Below are positions 3,262-64,000 of a DNA stretch of 64,000 nt, piece by piece (the first letter of the stretch is position 1; every line of letters begins with the position of its first letter). The stretch lies in the sequence record PP761450.1. One strand, 5' to 3'. Both the position numbers and the translations under genes were made by a program. The notes under the pieces were generated by a model that did no database searches, was not told the origin of the DNA, and saw only the letters and a program-made list of their open reading frames with translations. Source of the DNA: Escherichia phage LHE287.

Positions 3262-4230
3262 ATGGCCGACTTCAAGAAGACAATCGATAAGATCAAGGTT
3301 CTGAACACGAAGGGATTGTCCCAGGCTCAGAAGCAATTGTCTTATCCCCTGGACGTCACTGGGGGTAAGACCTTGGGACACTATGTCCTATTCAACATCA
3401 ACCGTATCTCCGGTTCATCTTATGGCAACACGGCTACTCAGACTATCGAGAACCCAATACAGAACCCTCTGGGGAATACTCCTGTGGTCTATGGGTCCAA
3501 GTCTGGTTCCATCACCAAATATGCATGGGCGCGCCACGTTCGTTCAAACGAGTCTATCGTACTTTGTATGCCCGAGTCCATTACAACCAACTATGGTGTT
3601 GGCTGGAACGGTAGCGAGCTGGGGTTGGCTGGTATGGGGGCACAGTTCCTTTCCCGCGCCGCCCAAGACATGACTCAGTTTAAACTGGGTGATGCGCTCA
3701 ACGTCGGGAAGGAGATGGGGCGATTCGCTGCCACCAAGGCTATCCAATCTGCGTCGGAGGCTATTCCATTCCTGCCGAGCATTAACGCCCATGACACCCT
3801 TGAGTTGTTCACAGGCACCATGACCAACCCATATGTGGAGATGATCTTCCAGGGTGTTCGCAACCGTGAGATTCCATTTACATTCAAATTCACGCCGCGA
3901 TCTCAGAAGGAAGCCAAGATGGTCCGTGAGATCATCCGCATGTTCAAGATGCACATGTACCCAGAGTACAAGTACAACAAGAATTCCAGCGCGTTTTACT
4001 TGCATCCTTCAACATTCGACATTACGTTCATGGTCAATGGGGAGCGTAACCAGTGGCTGCACCGCATCTCCACTTGTGTGCTTTCCAACATGTTCGTCAA
4101 CGAGACGCCGGACAGTTCATATGCGGTTCACAAAGATGATGGTATCGTGTCCACGCAGGTTGACATGACCTTCATCGAACTGGAGCCTCTGCATAAAGGG
4201 CGCTTTGAAACCGAAGGCGATAGCTTCTAA
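3262..4230 (+). CDS. Virion structural protein, probably baseplate/tail-tube junction (gp48/gp54-like)
   Basis: 322-aa ORF heading a co-directional block that ends in a tape-measure-like gene; size matches T4 gp54; no enzymatic motifs. Confidence 0.5.
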   Translation: MADFKKTIDKIKVLNTKGLSQAQKQLSYPLDVTGGKTLGHYVLFNINRISGSSYGNTATQTIENPIQNPLGNTPVVYGSKSGSITKYAWARHVRSNESIVLCMPESITTNYGVGWNGSELGLAGMGAQFLSRAAQDMTQFKLGDALNVGKEMGRFAATKAIQSASEAIPFLPSINAHDTLELFTGTMTNPYVEMIFQGVRNREIPFTFKFTPRSQKEAKMVREIIRMFKMHMYPEYKYNKNSSAFYLHPSTFDITFMVNGERNQWLHRISTCVLSNMFVNETPDSSYAVHKDDGIVSTQVDMTFIELEPLHKGRFETEGDSF

Positions 4231-4241
4231 GAGAGGATGCC

Positions 4242-4796
4242 ATGAAATATTTTGAGAAGTTTCCACTTGTTTGGCATCAATTGCAAGATGTCCAAGAGAA
4301 TGATCAGGTGCTGTTACAGAATTTAACGCGCCGGGTGATGATCTTACAGAAAATTAAGGACATCGAAGGGCTTCTCCTGCCGTATACGATCCAAGATGGG
4401 GAAACCCCAAGGTCTTTCGCAGAACGCGTTTACGGATCCTTCGAGTTGTTTTGGATACCTTGTCTGATAAACGGCATCATGGACATCAATAAGGACTGGC
4501 CGAAACCGGAACGCCGTATTGTTGAAGAACTGACTGCAGATTACGGCATCGATGGTATGTGGGATACAGCCTATTATGTCGACCAGTTCAACAATGTGAC
4601 CGACGCCCGTGCTATCAAATTTGCATATAACCTAGACCTGGATGAACCGTCCATAATTGCTAACTATGGTCTGACGGCAGTTTCATATCATGATGATGCA
4701 ATCAGTAAGAATGAAGCCAAACGGAACATCCAAGTACTCGACCCAGATTATGTGTCTTCGTTTGTCAATCAGCTGGAGCAGGAGTTGGCGAAATGA
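4242..4796 (+). CDS. Baseplate-associated protein with LysM-like segment
   Basis: YTIQDGETPRSFAERVYGSFELFWI resembles the LysM-like motif of P2 gpX-type baseplate proteins; tightly packed with neighbours. Confidence 0.45.
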   Translation: MKYFEKFPLVWHQLQDVQENDQVLLQNLTRRVMILQKIKDIEGLLLPYTIQDGETPRSFAERVYGSFELFWIPCLINGIMDINKDWPKPERRIVEELTADYGIDGMWDTAYYVDQFNNVTDARAIKFAYNLDLDEPSIIANYGLTAVSYHDDAISKNEAKRNIQVLDPDYVSSFVNQLEQELAK

Positions 4797-6181
4797 TCGA
4801 AAACAGAGAGACCCAAGACGGTATTGTAACACCGTCAACAACATTTGACCTGAAGTATATGGCGATACTCCCTCATACACCCCAGGGTGGATCACCAACG
4901 CCATATGACCTGACGGCGTTGTTTGAGGAGTTCAATGTCTTCCAGGATCTGGGTCTTGAAGGGAAGTCATCTCCATCACTTACAGCCAATGTCTTGATAA
5001 AAGAGGGGTGGGACATTCTTGACACAATGCCTATCTTGGGTGGCGAAGAAGTTGTGGTGTCATTCAAGAGTCCGGCGGCCTCGGAATACACCACTCTCTC
5101 CCTGCGCGTAGCGCGTGTTGGGCGCGTAGCTGATGAGTCCAACAGCTCGTCCAAGAAAGCATTCTGGTTGCACATGGTGACCACCGATGCCTATAAGGAC
5201 AGCATGATCCGATGCTCCCTCGGTCTTGACGGTTCGTATTCTGACATGGCGAAGACAATCTTCAATCAGCTGGAGTCGCGCACCAAGTTCGAAGACATCG
5301 ACCCGTCATATGGAATTCAAGAGCGGTTCGCCACCCCTCTCTGGCCTGTGCTGCGATCTATTGATTATATGGCGAGCCGTTCTTATGACGAATTGTTCAT
5401 GCCATTCGTGTTCTATGAAGACTTCAATGGCTATCACTTCAAGAGCCTGACGACGTTGTTCAACCAGGGCAGCCAGTCATTGACAGCAGAAGAGAAGCAG
5501 GAACTAGCTCAGCAGAACAAGTTGTTCCGTGATCCTCAGGACGCGCCGCTCATGCAGGATAACAACTTCAACTCTGAGCGCTTTATGCGCACGATCATCA
5601 AGGCAGAGAAGAAGCTGGCGCGTGACCAGTTCATGGCAAACTACCGCGATGTCCTGGCGGTGAACGAGCGCGTCTACGACTTTGAGACCAAGACAGTCAC
5701 CCCAACACAGCGCATCTATACTGAGTGGTTTGCAGAGACGGCTCACCTTGATCCGTTCCCGATGTTCTCAGATGAATTCAATCGTCAGAACGTCCGTTAC
5801 ATTGAAGCCCAGCCGGATGGAGCGGAGCAGATTGATTATGCTCGTCGTGTTATCAACTTCAGTCTTGCCAGCACTGTGATGCGCGTGTTGCTCGTTGGTG
5901 ATAACCGCCTGAACGTCGGTCAGGTGTTCTACGTCGAAGACCAGTCCAACCGTCCTAAGAAGAACGAAAACTTGGCAGAGTTAAGTAAGCTATCGACAGG
6001 CCACTATATCGTGACCAAAGTGCGTCACAAGATTTCCCGCCTGACCAAAGATTATCAGTGCATCGCTGAGATTGCCAAGGACAGTTTGCTGGAGCAGGTG
6101 CTTCCACCTCAGACCAATCAGACAACTGCTTCCACCACTACTCCTCAGGCGATTGAGAAAGGCCAAGCACAGAAGGTTTAA
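4793..6181 (+). CDS. Baseplate hub protein candidate (gp27/gpD-like)
   Basis: 462-aa ORF overlapping the upstream gene stop; position between the LysM-like and tape-measure-like genes. Confidence 0.45.
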   Translation: MIENRETQDGIVTPSTTFDLKYMAILPHTPQGGSPTPYDLTALFEEFNVFQDLGLEGKSSPSLTANVLIKEGWDILDTMPILGGEEVVVSFKSPAASEYTTLSLRVARVGRVADESNSSSKKAFWLHMVTTDAYKDSMIRCSLGLDGSYSDMAKTIFNQLESRTKFEDIDPSYGIQERFATPLWPVLRSIDYMASRSYDELFMPFVFYEDFNGYHFKSLTTLFNQGSQSLTAEEKQELAQQNKLFRDPQDAPLMQDNNFNSERFMRTIIKAEKKLARDQFMANYRDVLAVNERVYDFETKTVTPTQRIYTEWFAETAHLDPFPMFSDEFNRQNVRYIEAQPDGAEQIDYARRVINFSLASTVMRVLLVGDNRLNVGQVFYVEDQSNRPKKNENLAELSKLSTGHYIVTKVRHKISRLTKDYQCIAEIAKDSLLEQVLPPQTNQTTASTTTPQAIEKGQAQKV

Positions 6182-6192
6182 CGAGGTGACCC

Positions 6193-8139
6193 ATGGCACA
6201 GGAAGCAACGAACAATGATGTTGTCAAAGTTCTAGACAAGATCAAGGCGGAGATGATGCAGCGCAAACAACTCCGCGCTCAGAATGAAACCAACAAACAG
6301 CTTGACCGGATGAACAAGAATCTGGCCAAGCTGGAATCTGCCACCAAACAGGGCACCAAGGCCGAGTCCAAGCCATTTGAAATCCGTATCCCGACAGTCA
6401 ATGAGATCGTCATGGGATTCGCTCGCATGTCTCCGATCTTCACCCGCGACTTCAGCGTATGGATGAAGGATACTGTCGATGTGGGTAACGAAGGCAATCG
6501 GGAACTGGAGAATATCGCAGGCAAGATTGACCGCCTCGGTGAGATCACCCGCATGCCAACAGATGACACGTCCCTAGAGTATCTTAACCTGATCTCAGAC
6601 CAGCTGAAGTCTGCCAATGATGACACCCTCAAGCGCATGGACGAGCAGAGTGTGTCTCTGGTCCGCGTGGGATCATTCTTGAACATGATCGACGGAGTGA
6701 TGATCGAGGTTCGTGACGATGTTGCTGAACTGAAAAAGAACTCCGATGCCACCCTTACTCGCTTGTCTAGCATTGAAAACAAGATTGGGCGCACGGGCGG
6801 TCATATCGTTGGAGTGCTGACACGCATCTTTGATGAAGACCAGAAGTGGCGTGAGAAGGACGAGATGCGCCGTGGGGAAACCGACAAAGAAACGGGTGGT
6901 CATCCTCAGGCGGGTTCTGTTATACCCAAAGACGATGACCAGAAAGACGATTCCTCCGGTATCGGGGCTGCTGTGGCGGCCATGCTTGGCCTGAATGCAC
7001 TGAAGGGCTTCTTGCTCAAGCCGTTCAAGATCATCGGTGGTGTTGTCGGGACTTTCCTCGGCATGTTCTCCAAGCTGGGAGAAGGTATCACCAAACTTCT
7101 GGGTCCATTTGGGAAGGTGTTCAAGTTCCTGAAAGTCGGCCCACTGGCTCTCCTGTCTATGATCTGGGACTTCGGTAAAGGCTTCATTGATGCGAAGGAG
7201 ATCCTGGGTAAAGGTGCTGTCACGATAGTTGACCGAGTACGGGCGGGGATATCAGAACTGGTTGGTGGATTTGGTGATCTATTTGACTGGGTGTCCAAGA
7301 TCTTTGGCTTTGATACCGAGGCGGGTGAAACCCTGCGCAAATACACCCTCATGATCACTGAGGCTCCCGCTCGTTGGCTGAATGGTATTATCGACTGGAT
7401 TAGCAACGACTTGTTTGCAGGGATCGGGAGAGACACGTCTCTTACGGATATCCCTGGCAAGTTAGCAGACAACCTACAGTCCGAGTTGATAAAGCTGGTA
7501 GACTGGATCACAGGGGGTATCAGTAGTGTGATCGACGAGGGCATGGGTGTGGCCAACAAGGTCATTGACGAAATCAAGAAGGGATTTGCCGAAAATGTGA
7601 AGAAACCTTTCTTCAACATGCTGAACACAATCACCAATGCGATGTTCGATATCGTTGACAAGTTCGTCAGCATCATCCCTGACGCTCTGGGTGGACAGGC
7701 TGCGAAGCAGAAGATGGATGAGGCTCGCCAGTCTATGCTGATTGACACTGATGAGAATCCGTCTCCTAATGTGACAGAGACCCAGCAGCCACAGACGCCA
7801 GCACAACCGAACATCGATCCACAAACGCTGACTCCAATACCTTCTGGTGCGTCTTCGGATGACAAGAATATGACTAATGACCGCACCTCTCAGCTGAAAG
7901 CTGCGTATGGTTCTATCGGGGGTGGTACTCTGGGTGGGGCCATGCCATCACAAGGGAGGGCGCTGTCTAATATTGAGCAAGTACAAGGCGGCTATTCACC
8001 GCCTCCGGCCAGCGTCGTGATGCCAGTACAGCAGAATGTGGATGCTTCTAAGAGGATCAACACGACCAATAACTTCAACAGCTCATATCTTGAGCCTGAG
8101 AACAAAACAGATAATTCCCGCATCCTGTGGGAATGGTAA
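6193..8139 (+). CDS. Tape-measure-like / baseplate hub protein (gp29-like)
   Basis: 648 aa; coiled-coil-rich N-terminus, Gly-rich hydrophobic core (GIGAAVAAMLGLNALKG...GGVVGTFLGMF), Pro/Gln-rich C-terminus. Confidence 0.5.
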   Translation: MAQEATNNDVVKVLDKIKAEMMQRKQLRAQNETNKQLDRMNKNLAKLESATKQGTKAESKPFEIRIPTVNEIVMGFARMSPIFTRDFSVWMKDTVDVGNEGNRELENIAGKIDRLGEITRMPTDDTSLEYLNLISDQLKSANDDTLKRMDEQSVSLVRVGSFLNMIDGVMIEVRDDVAELKKNSDATLTRLSSIENKIGRTGGHIVGVLTRIFDEDQKWREKDEMRRGETDKETGGHPQAGSVIPKDDDQKDDSSGIGAAVAAMLGLNALKGFLLKPFKIIGGVVGTFLGMFSKLGEGITKLLGPFGKVFKFLKVGPLALLSMIWDFGKGFIDAKEILGKGAVTIVDRVRAGISELVGGFGDLFDWVSKIFGFDTEAGETLRKYTLMITEAPARWLNGIIDWISNDLFAGIGRDTSLTDIPGKLADNLQSELIKLVDWITGGISSVIDEGMGVANKVIDEIKKGFAENVKKPFFNMLNTITNAMFDIVDKFVSIIPDALGGQAAKQKMDEARQSMLIDTDENPSPNVTETQQPQTPAQPNIDPQTLTPIPSGASSDDKNMTNDRTSQLKAAYGSIGGGTLGGAMPSQGRALSNIEQVQGGYSPPPASVVMPVQQNVDASKRINTTNNFNSSYLEPENKTDNSRILWEW

Positions 8140-59033: not shown

Positions 59034-59083
59034 GATATAATCTTACCTTTCAACCCGGTGAACCCATCGTTCGCCAGTTATTG

Positions 59084-59137
59084 AATAATACGCATTTACC
59101 TTATAGAAGTAAACCCCTAAAAGTAAAAATCCCCAAC
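59084..59137. repeat. Copy 1 of a 54-bp direct repeat (early promoter plus start of terminator hairpin)
   Basis: Identical 54-mer aataatacgcatttaccttatagaagtaaacccctaaaagtaaaaatccccaac also at 59440-59493. Confidence 0.85.
59085..59113 (-). promoter_or_regulatory. Early sigma70-like promoter (TTTACT-N17-TATTAT), copy 1
   Basis: -35 TTTACT, 17-bp spacer, -10 TATTAT on the minus strand. Confidence 0.5.
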
Positions 59138-59148
59138 AAACGTTGGGG
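59131..59148 (-). terminator. Intrinsic terminator (copy 1)
   Basis: CCCCAAC / GTTGGGG stem followed by ATTTTTAC on the minus strand. Confidence 0.5.
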
Positions 59149-59166
59149 ATTTAATAAAAGTTATGC

Positions 59167-59391
59167 CTATTTAATTTCTCGGCTTGAATTTTCTAGTTCT
59201 AATTTTCTTATAGCGGAAATTCTGCCTTCATCAGTTGCGGGAAACTCCCAAACAGCACGACGCCCATTGTTGGTATCACAACTTGCCAGCCAGCAGAAAT
59301 TAGAGGGGTCCTTAAACAAGACCAACTTCGGATTTCCTAAATTGATGAGGTTAAACGGGGTGAGGTCAACAACACATGATATAGCAGACAT
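59167..59391 (-). CDS. Hypothetical small protein bracketed by duplicated promoter-terminator cassettes
   Basis: 74-aa ORF with ATG start and GAAGG RBS, promoter copy 2 upstream, terminator copy 1 downstream. Confidence 0.5.
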   Translation of the reverse strand: MSAISCVVDLTPFNLINLGNPKLVLFKDPSNFCWLASCDTNNGRRAVWEFPATDEGRISAIRKLELENSSREIK

Positions 59392-59439
59392 AACATATAC
59401 CTTCTTTCAATGAACGGGAACGCCCCGATCTATGAATTC

Positions 59440-59493
59440 AATAATACGCATTTACCTTATAGAAGTAAACCCCTAAAAGTAAAAATCCCCAAC
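59440..59493. repeat. Copy 2 of the 54-bp direct repeat
   Basis: Identical to 59084-59137. Confidence 0.85.
59441..59469 (-). promoter_or_regulatory. Early sigma70-like promoter, copy 2
   Basis: Same -35/-10 elements as copy 1. Confidence 0.5.
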
Positions 59494-59504
59494 GTTTGTT
59501 GGGG
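59487..59504 (-). terminator. Intrinsic terminator (copy 2) after the ACP-like gene
   Basis: CCCCAAC-GTTT-GTTGGGG hairpin then T-run on the minus strand. Confidence 0.5.
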
Positions 59505-59511
59505 ACTTCTG

Positions 59512-59835
59512 TTATTTGCGCAGGGCAACCACGAGTTCAGCGAGTTCACCCATGGTCGGGTCGTCGCCTTTACTACCTAGCCACCCGTCGTCGATTTCGA
59601 CCTGAAACTCTTCTTCGAGGTCCATTACAATTTCGATAGCGTCCAGTTCATCACCGCCGAGGTCTTTCTTGGTACGGAGGCCAGCCAGCTTGTCCAGGGC
59701 GTCCTCGTTCTGAGATGCCACGTCGTCCAGCAATTTGCGCTTGTCATCGTCACGCCACAGATCCATATTCAGATTGTCAGTGGCGTACTGAGCCAGATGA
59801 CGCATGACTTCAACATATGTTGGCTTACTGCTCAT
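59512..59835 (-). CDS. Acyl-carrier-protein-like protein lacking the phosphopantetheine-attachment serine
   Basis: DLGGDELDAIEIVMDLEEEFQVEIDD aligns to the ACP core [26 protein letters not shown] with Ser replaced by Glu; about 45-aa N-terminal extension. Confidence 0.6.
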   Translation of the reverse strand: MSSKPTYVEVMRHLAQYATDNLNMDLWRDDDKRKLLDDVASQNEDALDKLAGLRTKKDLGGDELDAIEIVMDLEEEFQVEIDDGWLGSKGDDPTMGELAELVVALRK

Positions 59836-59854
59836 GCTACTTCTCCCAAAGAAA

Positions 59855-59870
59855 GGCGGGTTGCCCCGCC
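59855..59870 (-). terminator. Hairpin between the vWA gene and the ACP-like gene
   Basis: GGCGGG-TTGC-CCCGCC followed by TTTCTTT on the minus strand. Confidence 0.4.
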
Positions 59871-59877
59871 CGTTGGA

Positions 59878-62121
59878 TTAGATTTTGATTTCTTTCTCTG
59901 TCAGTTCGGCAGTGACCTTGTACTTCACGCCATCCACTTCAACTTCCATGGTGGACTCTTCCAGGTCGAGGTCGGTGAACCAGCCGTGGCCAGCAACGAT
60001 ACCATACACCACTTTAGACAGTGTCTTGTTCAGGGCACGGACTTCGGTGATGGCCGCCTTGGCAGCAGCGTCGATCCAGTTTTCGATCAGCTGTTTCTGT
60101 AAGGCTTCAGGCACGGCAGTGATCATAGGAGACTTCACGAATGCTTCGTACTCTTTCAGAGCATTGGCGATGAACAAGTCACCAGCATTGAGTTTCTTGT
60201 TCTCTGCGATCTTCTTCTGTACTGCCGCGATGCTCGGTAGTGAAGACGCCCCGGCGATCTTCACGTTCAGCTCACGGCTCATGTAGAAGTCGGTAGACTC
60301 TTTGGTCTCAGTCTTCGGTGAGAAGCCGTAATCGCGGATGCCGTAGGAGGACAGGAACTCGGCCGCCTCAGCGCCGTACTGTACTGCCAGGCCTTTGGCG
60401 TTACCCTTACCAACCAGGGCGTCTCGATAGAACTTCAGCACCTTCTGCTTGCCTTTCAGGGCTTCCAGACGGACATTATCCGCAAAGAACTGAGCAGCAC
60501 TGATGTTCTTGACCATGGCGCGGTTGACCAGCGGTACGCTTTCCAGGTTCAGGACAAACACTTCCGGGCCACCAAACACGTGGACGCCCATTTCGATCAG
60601 CTTCTGTACAACTTCGATATCAGCCTTGAACGGCAGAGTCTTCACGTTAATGATACCGTCTTTGACGATGGTGTAGTTGCGCCACTGGAAAGTATCCAGT
60701 TCTTCAGGCAGGCCAAACTTCTTCTGTGCGAATTCAGGCACAGCCACAGTACCGTGTTGAATTGTACGCACACTGATGTTCGGGCGCTCGGAGTTATAGA
60801 CCAAATCACTGATTGGCACAACACCCAGATCGTTGGTAGGTTCGAACGTCGGGTTCCACTCTTCGTGTTCTGCCAGCTTGAGAGCCAGGGCTTTACGCTC
60901 TTCTTTGGACTGAGCATTCGCGATCTGTTCTGCCAGCTTGTCTTCGGTGTCGTCGGTTTTCTGCACAGTACCGCGCCCGATACTCTTATAGGAGAACATC
61001 GGATGCTTGGTAGCAACAGGTACACCAGCTTCAGCCAGGTACGTCAGCACATCAACGACGGTGGTCGCATCTTCAGCCGGAACCAGGTCATAGTCAATAC
61101 CGTCAACGCCGCGCAGCTGGTCGTCAACAATCGCCTGAACCAGATCGTTCTTGATGTTGGAGTAGTCCTGCTTGGTGAAGCAGTTGCTGTACTGTTTGAT
61201 GAAGCGAACGTCGCCCGTCTTCTTCAGCGCAGCCCAAACCAGATCTGCGTCCATAGTGTGTACACCGTAGAACGCCAGCACGTATGCCGCCTGGATGTCC
61301 GTCAGGCTATCCATCTGGTCGATCATGTTAGGGTTTACAACCCACAGCTTGGTGACGCTCTCAGGGATGCTCACATAGCCGACCGGGTGAGAGTCATCGT
61401 CCTGCACCGCCAGTACTGTTGCCACACCGTTTTCGACGTAGATGGCATGGGTGTAGATGACTGGGACATCAACTTTCACCTTCGGCACTGATGACTTCAG
61501 CACGTTTTCCAGTTCGGTCTGGTATTCGGTCTGACCTTCGGCAAACACATGAGTCGCGCCAGAGCGCTCGGACATCAGAGCCAGCAGTTCGCGGTTACAG
61601 TGCCAGCCGTATTCGATGAAAGTAATGTTATCGAACGCAGAAGGCAAGGTTTCGGCGACGGCCAGGATTTCGTTTGAGCGCCAGCAGTTGTCATAACCAT
61701 CGGTCATGAATGCCAGGTTGTTGACGTAACCAGGTTTCTTCAGGTCACGCGCAGTATCCATCGCCAGTTTCAACGGCTCAACGAAGCCAGTACATCCGGA
61801 CGGTTGCAGGAAGCGATCGATCAGTTTGTTCAGCTCGCTCAGGTCAGACGCAGCACTAACCTGGCGGCCAGCGAACACAGTACCAAAGTCGCCTTTGGAG
61901 GAGAAATACAGAACGCTCACAGTGTCTTCCGGTTTCACCAGGGAAGGCAGGTTCTCCTTCAGATGCTTACGGACTTCAGGGAGCGCACGGTACATAGAGC
62001 CGGAAATGTCTACAACGATTACATGGTTGGACGGGGTAGCAGTCGCAACCGCATTCTTAAATTCTAATGATTCAATCATTGTTCTCTTCGCCTTGTGCGT
62101 AAGGGTTAAGTTCAGACTCAT
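59878..62121 (-). CDS. von Willebrand factor A (vWA/MIDAS) domain protein, large
   Basis: N-terminal HVIVVDISGSM (DxSxS MIDAS motif); about 600 aa of C-terminal sequence without recognisable motifs; the true start may be the internal ATG at 62079 (better RBS). Confidence 0.7.
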   Translation of the reverse strand: MSLNLTLTHKAKRTMIESLEFKNAVATATPSNHVIVVDISGSMYRALPEVRKHLKENLPSLVKPEDTVSVLYFSSKGDFGTVFAGRQVSAASDLSELNKLIDRFLQPSGCTGFVEPLKLAMDTARDLKKPGYVNNLAFMTDGYDNCWRSNEILAVAETLPSAFDNITFIEYGWHCNRELLALMSERSGATHVFAEGQTEYQTELENVLKSSVPKVKVDVPVIYTHAIYVENGVATVLAVQDDDSHPVGYVSIPESVTKLWVVNPNMIDQMDSLTDIQAAYVLAFYGVHTMDADLVWAALKKTGDVRFIKQYSNCFTKQDYSNIKNDLVQAIVDDQLRGVDGIDYDLVPAEDATTVVDVLTYLAEAGVPVATKHPMFSYKSIGRGTVQKTDDTEDKLAEQIANAQSKEERKALALKLAEHEEWNPTFEPTNDLGVVPISDLVYNSERPNISVRTIQHGTVAVPEFAQKKFGLPEELDTFQWRNYTIVKDGIINVKTLPFKADIEVVQKLIEMGVHVFGGPEVFVLNLESVPLVNRAMVKNISAAQFFADNVRLEALKGKQKVLKFYRDALVGKGNAKGLAVQYGAEAAEFLSSYGIRDYGFSPKTETKESTDFYMSRELNVKIAGASSLPSIAAVQKKIAENKKLNAGDLFIANALKEYEAFVKSPMITAVPEALQKQLIENWIDAAAKAAITEVRALNKTLSKVVYGIVAGHGWFTDLDLEESTMEVEVDGVKYKVTAELTEKEIKI

Positions 62122-62389: not shown

Positions 62390-64000
62390 TCAGATTTGTG
62401 AGGCCAGTTCTGTCACCAGAGGAGCGGCACGAACACGCGCATCTTCCAGTGTTTGAGTATTGAAGAACTCGCCATCACGATACACCAGCTGGTGCTGGTT
62501 GTCGGCGTCTTGCACCTGATCAAAGGTGATACCGTCAACCAACACTAGTTTACCCTGAGAGTCTTTAATGACTTTAAGGAAACCACGCGCAGACTTTTTA
62601 GTCCCGCCTTTATCGGTCTTCGGCTCTTTGAAGATCTCACGGAATTCACCGTTCACTTTACCAGCCGTGGCTTTCACTGCTGTGCCAGTACTGTCACGGG
62701 TGTTCATCTGGTAGGTGTAGGAACCGATACCGAACACCACGTTGATGGAAGCGAAGTTCCGGTCAGCCAGACGGCTAAAGATCTGGTCTTCACGCGCCAG
62801 GGTGATAGAATCACCGTAGATCAGGCCGATGTGCTCATCCAACAGGAAGTGCCCAGTTTCAGTCTGGGTGCCACCAAAGATCTCCCACAGGCGCTGGATA
62901 GAGCCGACCGCTTCTGAACGGCTGATGATATTACGGTCATCTACCATCAGAGAGTTGATCGTGCCTTCGCCTGTGATCAGGTGATAGGTGTTCGTCTCTT
63001 CGATGTGGATAACTTCGGTGCTGCTAGACACGCCGCTGATGTTCAGCGTAGCGCGGTCTTTGAACCCCTCGATGCGGTAGCCGCCAACGATGTGTACAGG
63101 GTCGCCCGAGTCGGGGCGAATCACGACTTTACCATTGCGCGCCATGATAATGTCTTTCAGGCGAGGCAGATAGTCGTCGATGACCTGCCAGTAATCCCAC
63201 GCATCAGACACGATGCTGACGATGCCATCAGGATACACGTCCTGCACCAGGCGGCGGAAGGTTTCGAATTCGCCATCCTTCGTGCCCATACACATCACCG
63301 CATGTTCCGTTGCGGCAACCGACCCAGCAACGACATAGTCTTCGTCGATGTCTGCGCCATAATACTCTTCTACGAAGTCCAGGGCAGGGTTGGTATCGGT
63401 GCCTTTGAAGAACACCAGATGACCGGAACCGGAAGACGCGGCATCATGCCACCCGCTCATACCACGAAAGGAGAAGTCGTGGCCTTGGTAGTCGATGAAC
63501 CAATGGTCCGGTGATACTCCCGTAGCGAGGGCAGCTTTCACCATCAGTGCCTTGTAATGCAAAGCTATGGTGGCGTTCGTCATCGGCTTCCAGATCTCAG
63601 AGCTGAACACAGTCTCCAGATAGTTGGTCAGCCAGTAGAACTCCGGCAGGGTATTGAACATCACATACACCGGAACGCCATACGGGCACATGGTACCTTC
63701 AGGCAGCGCGCGGACTTCGATAGGCAGGTAGCCGAGGTCATGCAGGGCTTCAATATGCTCTGTGCCGACGCGGCCTGGACCCAGGACTTTGTTCATGCGA
63801 CGGGCATACTTCTTCAGCACCTTGGCCTTCGGGCGCTGGAAGAATGCTTCGTCAAACAGTTCGTGGAACCAGGTCATGAAGCCCTGGATGCCCCAGACCA
63901 CCACGCCGTTCTTCGGCAGGTGAGAGTTGAACAGTTTGTTAGAGCGCGGAGTTCCGTTGGAGAACACCAGCTCACTGCCTTCAGGGAACTGATAGATGTG
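62390..64000 (-). CDS. nadV: Nicotinamide phosphoribosyltransferase family protein (NadV/NAMPT-like), N-terminus beyond window end
   Basis: NAMPT-like blocks (EGTMCPYGVPVYVMFNTLPEFYWLTNYLET; GHDFSFRGMSG; RPDSGDP); the frame stays open upstream of the GTG at 63967 to the window edge, so the 5' end is truncated. Confidence 0.8.
   Translation of the reverse strand, partial: HIYQFPEGSELVFSNGTPRSNKLFNSHLPKNGVVVWGIQGFMTWFHELFDEAFFQRPKAKVLKKYARRMNKVLGPGRVGTEHIEALHDLGYLPIEVRALPEGTMCPYGVPVYVMFNTLPEFYWLTNYLETVFSSEIWKPMTNATIALHYKALMVKAALATGVSPDHWFIDYQGHDFSFRGMSGWHDAASSGSGHLVFFKGTDTNPALDFVEEYYGADIDEDYVVAGSVAATEHAVMCMGTKDGEFETFRRLVQDVYPDGIVSIVSDAWDYWQVIDDYLPRLKDIIMARNGKVVIRPDSGDPVHIVGGYRIEGFKDRATLNISGVSSSTEVIHIEETNTYHLITGEGTINSLMVDDRNIISRSEAVGSIQRLWEIFGGTQTETGHFLLDEHIGLIYGDSITLAREDQIFSRLADRNFASINVVFGIGSYTYQMNTRDSTGTAVKATAGKVNGEFREIFKEPKTDKGGTKKSARGFLKVIKDSQGKLVLVDGITFDQVQDADNQHQLVYRDGEFFNTQTLEDARVRAAPLVTELASQI

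Follow-up and report, generated by a model that had tools for sequence, protein, structure and literature searches.

A serine-less acyl carrier protein fold in an Agtrevirus-like phage, with a conserved carboxylate at the attachment position and a tentative role as a mimic of host acyl carrier protein

The present study concerns a small gene located at positions 59512–59835 (minus strand) of a 64,000-nucleotide stretch of Escherichia phage LHE287 (sequence record PP761450.1), the whole of which is referred to below as the window. The product of this gene resembles acyl carrier protein (ACP) and carries glutamate at the position of the serine to which phosphopantetheine is attached in ACPs. The window belongs to an Agtrevirus-like phage of the Ackermannviridae; across the region, identity is 97% with Escherichia phage AV101 (an Aglimvirinae member of this family) and 89–96% with other members of the family. 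The ACP-like gene is the last of a minus-strand gene run, which in relatives comprises, in this order, a ribose-phosphate pyrophosphokinase-type gene, a nicotinamide phosphoribosyltransferase-type gene, a small open reading frame (ORF), the gene of a 733-aa protein with a von Willebrand factor type A (vWA) domain and the ACP-like gene. The ORF of 107 aa was present exactly as the original prediction had described it, and the following features were assigned to it:

59512..59835, minus strand: coding sequence of the ACP-like protein (107 aa, ATG start, isoelectric point (pI) 4.24, 27 Asp and Glu residues in total).
59647..59649, minus strand (plus-strand TTC): codon GAA for Glu63, at the position of the phosphopantetheine-attachment Ser, which corresponds by alignment to Ser36 of E. 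coli AcpP.
59605..59652, minus strand: helix II, the "recognition helix", with its acidic patch, D62–F77, DELDAIEIVMDLEEEF (assigned from helix 66–77 of the structural model, the invariant residues and the identity to AcpP).
59773..59817, minus strand: clade-specific helix of the N-terminal extension, residues 7–21 (assigned from modeled secondary structure and conservation).
59554..59583, minus strand: loop between helices III and IV, W85-x-G87-x3-D91-D92-P93-T94, with a 3-residue insertion relative to AcpP.

Glu63 lies in the context K-D-L-G-G-D62-E63-L64-D65-A-I-E-I-V-M-D-L-E-E-E-F, and at least two substitutions separate its GAA codon from every Ser codon. The Pfam PP-binding profile (PF00550) matched the protein with 24.7 bits, above the gathering cut-off of 20.8, while the scores of PP-binding_2 (27.5 against a threshold of 32; E 3.9e-6) and of the NCBIfam AcpP equivalog TIGR00517 (33.7 against a cut-off of 70.45 bits) remained below their limits. 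The match to PHROG 4154, “acyl carrier protein”, extended from end to end (residues 1–107 against positions 1–108 of the 108 in the profile; E 2.6e-57). In a phmmer search against Protein Data Bank (PDB) chains, the best 60 of 99 matches were all ACPs or mitochondrial ACP subunits, with a best E of 1.6e-5, and AcpP used as a phmmer query detected a single ACP-like ORF, the one at 59512..59835. Direct comparison with E. coli AcpP by BLASTP gave 17/27 identities (63%) over residues 57–83, including LEEEF. An almost position-for-position match to ACP had been proposed for the C-terminal 60 residues; such a match was obtained without gaps for approximately 27 residues, and alignment of the rest requires the 3-residue insertion in the helix III–IV loop.

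A model lacking the ACP fold had been named in the original prediction as an outcome that would speak against it. The AlphaFold2 model (39 homologs in the alignment; mean predicted local distance difference test score (pLDDT) 77.8, predicted template modeling score (pTM) 0.70) gave an ACP fold, with helices at residues 7–21, 30–40, 44–51, 66–77, 83–88 and 95–106, and the protein is accordingly modeled as a true four-helix ACP-fold protein. According to the model and the alignment, the ACP domain at the fold level comprises about 80 residues (roughly 28–107). It is preceded in the model by an N-terminal extension of approximately 28 residues forming a single conserved amphipathic helix, so the segment is shorter than the approximately 45 aa initially suggested. 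By fold and Pfam profile, the protein belongs to the carrier-protein superfamily, and it is a member of PHROG 4154. At the same time, because the attachment Ser is absent and the threshold of the AcpP equivalog is missed, its classification as a functional ACP would be inappropriate. Replacement of the Ser would preclude phosphopantetheinylation at the canonical site, in agreement with the earlier statement that conversion to holo-ACP is impossible there, and would thereby preclude acyl shuttling.

Glu or Asp stands in place of the attachment Ser in every member read, namely, in the 39 closest protein clusters, in 22 viral-contig loci of IMG/VR and in 8 remote relatives of full length, including the more divergent versions of the Bue1 type (Erwinia; A-M-D-E-L-D) and the 3M type (Serratia; W-F-D-E-L-D), both of which have Glu. 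Among the 39 closest clusters, Glu was found in 37 and Asp in 2, and Asp (G-G-D-D-L-D) also occurs in several Kuttervirus-type viral-contig loci. The replacement residue was thus a carboxylate throughout; Ala, Thr and Gly were never seen in the members read. An exhaustive profile search over 1.8 billion representatives added full-length relatives with 33–50% identity, all of which have Glu or Asp as well. The central claim of the original prediction, an ACP-like protein with Glu in place of the attachment Ser, therefore applies to the whole family when Asp is admitted beside Glu.

Helix II is the most conserved part of the protein, and the helix I region is hypervariable. Residues D62, L64, D65, I67, E68 and E74 are invariant across the 39 closest clusters, and M71, E75 and E76 are nearly invariant in the family alignments, so that the recognition surface of helix II has been retained, as had been proposed. 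The loop residues W85, G87, D91, D92, P93 and T94 are invariant in the alignment of the same 39 clusters, and in the N-terminal helix Y7, V10, M11, L14, Y17, A18 and N21 are conserved, together with L22 just past its end. By alignment, this helix is missing from AcpP and from the Bue1-type and 3M-type homologs; the latter two also lack the DDPT loop, yet helix II and the carboxylate are present in them. Near the N-terminus of helix II, where T55 is variable, the family alignments show no conserved Ser or Thr that could serve as another attachment residue. T94 is aligned with the usual helix IV N-cap Thr of ACPs.

Pairwise ratios of nonsynonymous to synonymous substitution rates (dN/dS) of the ACP-like gene were 0.03–0.2 in unsaturated comparisons, which corresponds to purifying selection and indicates that the gene is functional. 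These sequence comparisons indicate that the Ser replacement is an ancient, selected state. A Ser codon at this position, which the original prediction had considered as a possible outcome of resequencing, was found in no independent sequence read, each of which has Glu or Asp. Sequencing error and a pseudogene were ruled out by the distance of the GAA codon from Ser codons, by the presence of Glu or Asp in all independent genomes and metagenome contigs read and by the dN/dS values.

The gene was detected by tblastn in 271 phage records, in 270 of them with at least 80% coverage, and the hosts of these phages include Salmonella, Klebsiella, Escherichia, Dickeya, Shigella, Enterobacter and Serratia. 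Named records mostly use “acyl carrier protein”; “phosphopantetheine attachment site protein” and “acpA” occur in one record each. The label “acyl carrier protein” is functionally misleading for this gene. In the complete genome of the related phage pertopsoe, no phosphopantetheinyl transferase (PPTase), Fab enzyme, polyketide synthase, nonribosomal peptide synthetase, other ACP-dependent enzyme or MoxR/CobS-type ATPase is annotated. Additionally, no AcpS-like ORF was detected by phmmer, in what was a weak test with an E. coli AcpS query.

The conservation of helix II beside a hypervariable helix I, the loss of the Ser and the lack of annotated carrier enzymes led us to commit to one reading, albeit tentatively and with a confidence somewhat short of one half: the protein may be a permanently unmodifiable ACP mimic that engages putative host ACP clients through helix II. 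It would be a “pseudo” ACP, locked in an unmodifiable, apo-like state by the change of Ser to a carboxylate (Glu63 here), in which selection keeps the acidic docking surface of helix II together with the N-terminal helix and the W-x-G...DDPT loop. During infection, such a mimic would compete for the sites at which one or more host clients bind ACP, and host lipid or other ACP-dependent metabolism would be redirected or shut down as a result. Both the identity of the partner as a host ACP client and the inhibitory nature of the effect are inferred. The substrate of AcpS is apo-ACP. The best candidate targets would be clients that bind ACP without the acyl-pantetheine arm, and PlsB and AcpS appear the most plausible of these since both accept the apo form; inhibition of the E. 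coli glycerol-3-phosphate acyltransferase PlsB by apo-ACP is known (review PMC3896788). A decoy is a plausible idea, being derived by inference and by analogy with this published inhibition. The original interpretation is, overall, partly supported.

The restriction of the replacement residue to Glu and Asp may reflect mimicry of the phosphate of the pantetheine linkage, or contact with a metal in an active site or in a metal-ion-dependent adhesion site (MIDAS), and it is taken as no evidence for a specific target. According to a broader proposal, the Ackermannviridae and, independently, other phage lineages would encode “locked-apo” ACP mimics that dock on PlsB, AcpS, MukB or Lpx/Fab enzymes, with Glu/Asp mimicking the pantetheine phosphate or trapping an active-site metal. 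We regard this generalization as less likely than not.

Several considerations weigh against a mimic of host ACP. Computationally, no host target stands out from the others. All ACPs conserve the helix II motif, in part because their structure requires it, and its retention is no proof of mimicry. The preference for Glu and Asp may be a matter of helix N-terminal capping, since the first turn of a helix favors acidic residues. Given the extreme abundance of host AcpP, stoichiometric competition would require high expression of the phage protein or a much higher affinity. Moreover, several ACP clients depend on the holo or acyl form, and SpoT does not bind apo-ACP (PMC3896788). Finally, the strict adjacency of a vWA gene with a MIDAS offers an alternative, phage-encoded partner. 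The features that bear on this alternative are the following:

59878..62079, minus strand: gene of the vWA-domain protein (733 aa), upstream neighbor of the ACP-like gene.
61996..62010, minus strand: MIDAS motif D-I-S-G-S of the vWA domain, recognized from sequence, with the Thr (SGCTG) and the Asp (MTDG) downstream.
59854..59871, minus strand: GC-rich hairpin found in a scan for terminator-like structures; its stem has 7 bp, 6 of them GC pairs. It lies within the 42 nt that separate the vWA stop codon from the ACP-like start codon, and a GGAG ribosome-binding site comes after it.
59436..59508, minus strand: intrinsic terminator hairpin with a T-run, then a sigma70-like promoter, directly after the ACP-like stop (a repeat_region in the annotation of phage pertopsoe).

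The mechanically defined vWA ORF extends to 62121 (747 aa) due to 14 extra codons at 62080–62121, and relatives start at Met15. On the minus strand, this 14-codon extension overlaps the end of the small upstream ORF. Across 64 homologs, D24, S26 and S28 are at least 90% conserved, H19 is nearly invariant, and T97 and D127 are invariant; judged by sequence, the vWA neighbor carries a complete MIDAS signature (DxSxS...T...D). The N-terminal part of the vWA protein resembles ArnB, ITIH and the Sec24 trunk, and its C-terminal 430 residues have no assigned fold. Homologs with conserved MIDAS are encoded by the Ackermannviridae, by T4-like phages whose genomes have the size of RB43/RB16 and by jumbo phages (contigs of 300–500 kb). 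A phmmer search against PDB gave one weak ArnB match as the sole clue to the function of the vWA protein, and NCBIfam and PADLOC returned nothing specific.

In integrin I-domains, the anthrax receptor and midasin, an Asp or Glu supplied by the ligand completes the coordination of the MIDAS metal. Since the small ACP-like protein presents an invariant carboxylate where helix II begins, at an exposed position, it is an attractive candidate ligand. In this alternative, the protein would be a putative ligand or regulatory subunit of the adjacent vWA protein, the Glu63/Asp at the tip of helix II would complete the coordination of the MIDAS metal, and the ACP fold would serve only as a docking module. 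We consider this unlikely, though it is the best supported of the alternatives. The invariable carboxylate in the members read and the invariant or nearly invariant MIDAS residues of the 64 vWA homologs are in its favor, and so is the arrangement of the genes. In all Ackermannviridae-type loci examined, both genes are present, and the vWA gene is followed on the same strand, after 38–45 nt, by the ACP-like gene. This adjacency was seen in Kuttervirus-, Agtrevirus-, Limestonevirus- and Taipeivirus-type loci and in remote metagenomic loci, and the Bue1-type homolog adjoins a vWA gene as well. The predicted terminator after the ACP-like stop closes the transcription unit, and the vWA and ACP-like genes can therefore be co-transcribed.

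At the same time, an ACP-like ORF within 4 kb of the vWA gene was present in only 22 of 80 viral-contig loci, all 22 of the Ackermannviridae type. The vWA homologs of the other 58, from T4-like (RB43/RB16-size) and jumbo phages with 33–50% identity, lack it, as does locus L046, whose vWA protein shows 68% identity. Such confinement of the co-occurrence to the Ackermannviridae leaves functional coupling not established, and adjacency is itself little informative in a family whose gene order tends to be conserved. The two genes are separated by another one in the Serratia 3M type. Their evolutionary rates also argue against a fixed pair: dN of the ACP-like gene is approximately 2.5-fold that of the vWA gene, and in the same remote metagenomic loci the ACP-like proteins are 33–44% identical against 72–80% for the vWA proteins. 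In locus L028 (IMGVR_UViG_2974516482_000001, 159128 bp; 4001–6582), the vWA gene is of the Kuttervirus type (dN 0.116 relative to the window), and the ACP-like gene beside it is of the Agtrevirus type (dN 0.028). This mixed pair indicates that local recombination exchanged the ACP-like gene between genera without its vWA neighbor, which likewise speaks against a ligand of the vWA protein. A further point against it is the GC-rich hairpin between the genes; judging from its sequence and position, this element (59854–59871) could set the proportion of the two products, either as an attenuator or through mRNA processing or stability.

Related Ser-less proteins are found on phage contigs in whose recovered DNA no vWA gene is present. 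The short proteins P0051, P0053 and P0054 (86–98 aa) form the nearest outgroup in the profile search. They have G-(G/A)-D-E-L-D; their helix III–IV loop carries G-x3-DDP in P0051 and P0054 and G-x3-DDK in P0053. Two members of this outgroup are located on phage contigs with thymidylate synthase and replication modules (L014, 7079–7375; L004, 936–1223), and no vWA gene was found in the recovered DNA of these contigs (11.5 kb and 1.3 kb). The Ser-less state therefore looks independent of the vWA gene. Judged from sequence, the carrier Ser has been lost repeatedly, and its loss in phages does not appear to depend on vWA.

Other ACP folds vary at the Ser motif. Vibrio phage 277E43-1 encodes a 178-aa ACP-fold protein with D-N-L-D (L097, 2980–3513), and a bacterial Ser-less ACP fold of 140 aa with D-D-L-D (L016, 8001–8423) is encoded between genes for a DegT-type aminotransferase and a GNAT acetyltransferase. 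The ACP of Xanthomonas phage phiXF1 (L098, 2992–3237) has the canonical D-S-L-D and is encoded between gyrB and gyrA, an odd place for a carrier protein. A cluster look-up of the Ser-less matches from outside the Ackermannviridae returned no annotation.

The surroundings of the gene pair showed some additional features. A 73-nt direct repeat with 92% identity is present at 59080–59152 and 59436–59508, each copy containing the terminator hairpin, the T-run and the sigma70-like promoter (TTTACT-17-TATTAT), and the hairpin loop is inverted between the copies (AAAC in one, GTTT in the other). The copies flank a 74-aa ORF (59167–59391, minus strand) that is present in phage pertopsoe (gp060) and absent from AV101, and the arrangement suggests that a small gene cassette bounded by the repeats was inserted or deleted. 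On the other side, the nicotinamide/nicotinate phosphoribosyltransferase-type gene is located at 62390..63967 on the minus strand (NF006629, 441 bits). Its Prs-type partner is seen in relatives (L001, 10275–12790; L012, 2987–5502), and in the phage analyzed it would lie past the end of the window at 64000. According to a review of the Ackermannviridae, Prs/Nampt pairs serve phage NAD+ reconstitution against NAD-depleting defenses. A link of the ACP-like gene to these upstream NAD+ genes was considered and set aside, as the same review has them variable among Agtrevirus genomes, while the vWA and ACP-like genes occurred in all Ackermannviridae loci examined.

A second alternative is that the protein serves passively as a structural or assembly component of another complex, of phage or host, in which the ACP fold would act as a scaffold, as it does in mitochondrial complexes, with no mimicry of AcpP. 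We regard this as rather improbable. The mitochondrial ACP (mACP) of Plasmodium provides a precedent for a Ser-less scaffold, and the conserved N-terminal helix and W-x-G...DDPT loop suggest a dedicated interface foreign to AcpP; yet in the Bue1-type and 3M-type homologs these extra elements are absent, and helix II and the carboxylate are present. One peptide of the ACP-like protein was found by mass spectrometry of Sajous1 virions, which would agree with a structural role, but carry-over is the likely source of this one peptide. Neither an LYR-type partner nor a candidate complex was identified, LYR partners not having been searched systematically.

It is very unlikely that the protein acts by charge alone, as a generic polyanion that mimics DNA or another nucleic acid or serves as a sink for cations and polycationic proteins. 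Its composition (27 of 107 residues Asp or Glu, pI 4.24) would suit such a role, and small acidic mimic proteins are common in phages, for example, the MukBEF-inhibiting viral DNA mimic of PMC7617805. However, conservation in the family follows position (helix II, the DDPT loop and the N-terminal helix) rather than composition, the fold is that of ACP and not a DNA-like array of charges, and PADLOC gave no match for the protein. Least probable of all is a genuine carrier modified at a non-canonical residue or with another prosthetic group, or else a decaying relic, since the carrier labels in the records and the conserved hydroxyl of T94 are set against the lack of Ser/Thr near the helix II N-terminus with T55 variable, the ordinary N-cap role to which T94 corresponds, the lack of an annotated PPTase or acyl-ACP enzyme in the phage and, for a relic, dN/dS of 0.03–0.2 with intact ORFs across deeply diverged lineages.

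The non-carrier nature of the protein matters for annotation in the first place: hundreds of phage genomes carry this gene under a label implying a carrier function for lipids or polyketides that its sequence cannot perform, and many of the phages concerned are candidates for therapy or for biocontrol directed at Salmonella, E. coli O157, Klebsiella and Dickeya. Recognition of the product as a Ser-less, carboxylate-substituted ACP fold provides a cheaply testable hypothesis, namely, a mimic of the most connected small protein of the bacterial cell. If it is a mimic, it would represent a new phage route of interference with host lipid or ACP-dependent pathways, would supply a natural scaffold for inhibitors of ACP-client enzymes, themselves antibiotic targets, and would widen the concept of Ser-less ACPs, until now documented only in apicomplexan mitochondria, to viruses and bacteria. 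If the broader class of mimics exists, it would add unrecognized protein-mimic factors of host takeover and give the first functional account of the “ACP” genes scattered in phage genomes. Should the protein instead be a partner of the vWA protein, it would offer the first handle on a large and widespread phage protein.

Compared with AcpP (PF00550; TIGR00517), the phage protein shares the helix II motif DLGxDxLDxxExxMxLEEEF and the strong acidity. It differs in the Glu/Asp in place of Ser, in the extra N-terminal helix segment of approximately 28 aa and in the 3-residue W-x-G...DDPT insertion, and the phage, judged from the pertopsoe genome, has no annotated PPTase or fatty acid synthase partners. 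Among MIDAS–ligand pairs, the integrin I-domain binds a Glu of ICAM, and midasin binds a Glu of the ubiquitin-like domains of Rsa4 and Ytm1. The phage locus resembles these pairs in combining a neighbor with an intact MIDAS and a small candidate partner with an exposed, conserved carboxylate; it differs from them in that vWA homologs elsewhere lack this candidate partner. To our knowledge, ACP folds are not known as MIDAS ligands.

Other phage ACP homologs (PHROG 5934; the phiXF1 ACP and ORF32 of Erythrobacter phage R6L) are likewise small, stand-alone ACP-fold genes, whose “function remains unclear” (PMC5463345). They differ at the Ser motif (D-S-L-D in phiXF1, D-N-L-D in 277E43-1), and the N-terminal helix and the vWA neighbor are characteristic of the Ackermannviridae clade. 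In the literature searched, no phage ACP mimic is described, no paper notes the missing Ser or proposes a function, and nothing relevant on the timing of Ackermannviridae transcripts was found; the 2024 review of the Ackermannviridae mentions neither the ACP-like nor the vWA gene. Identity as “acyl carrier protein” is already public at the level of annotation, and the non-carrier nature and its family-wide conservation appear unreported in that literature.

For the preferred reading, a mimic of host ACP, the host's own apo-ACP offers an inhibitory parallel. According to the primary work (Keating, Carey and Cronan 1995, as reviewed in PMC3896788), apo-ACP inhibits E. coli growth and glycerol-3-phosphate acyltransferase. 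Like the phage protein, apo-ACP has no prosthetic group and keeps its docking surface, and it is a competitive inhibitor of an ACP client. However, it is a protein of the host itself, was artificially overproduced and can be reversed by AcpS, whereas the phage protein would be genetically locked and is a putative inhibitor. The closest functional precedent, by analogy, is the mACP of apicomplexans with its Ser-to-Phe change. The mACP of Plasmodium falciparum lacks the Ser and performs an essential, phosphopantetheine-independent function purely by protein binding, and its authors found Ser-less ACPs solely in Apicomplexa and Vitrella (PMC8547962). As in the phage protein, the ACP fold and the acidic residues of helix II are retained and the attachment Ser is lost (PMC8547962); the difference is that Phe replaces Ser in mACP and helps to build the hydrophobic contact surface for the LYR protein Isd11, whereas the phage protein has Glu or Asp at this position and is found in a viral setting.

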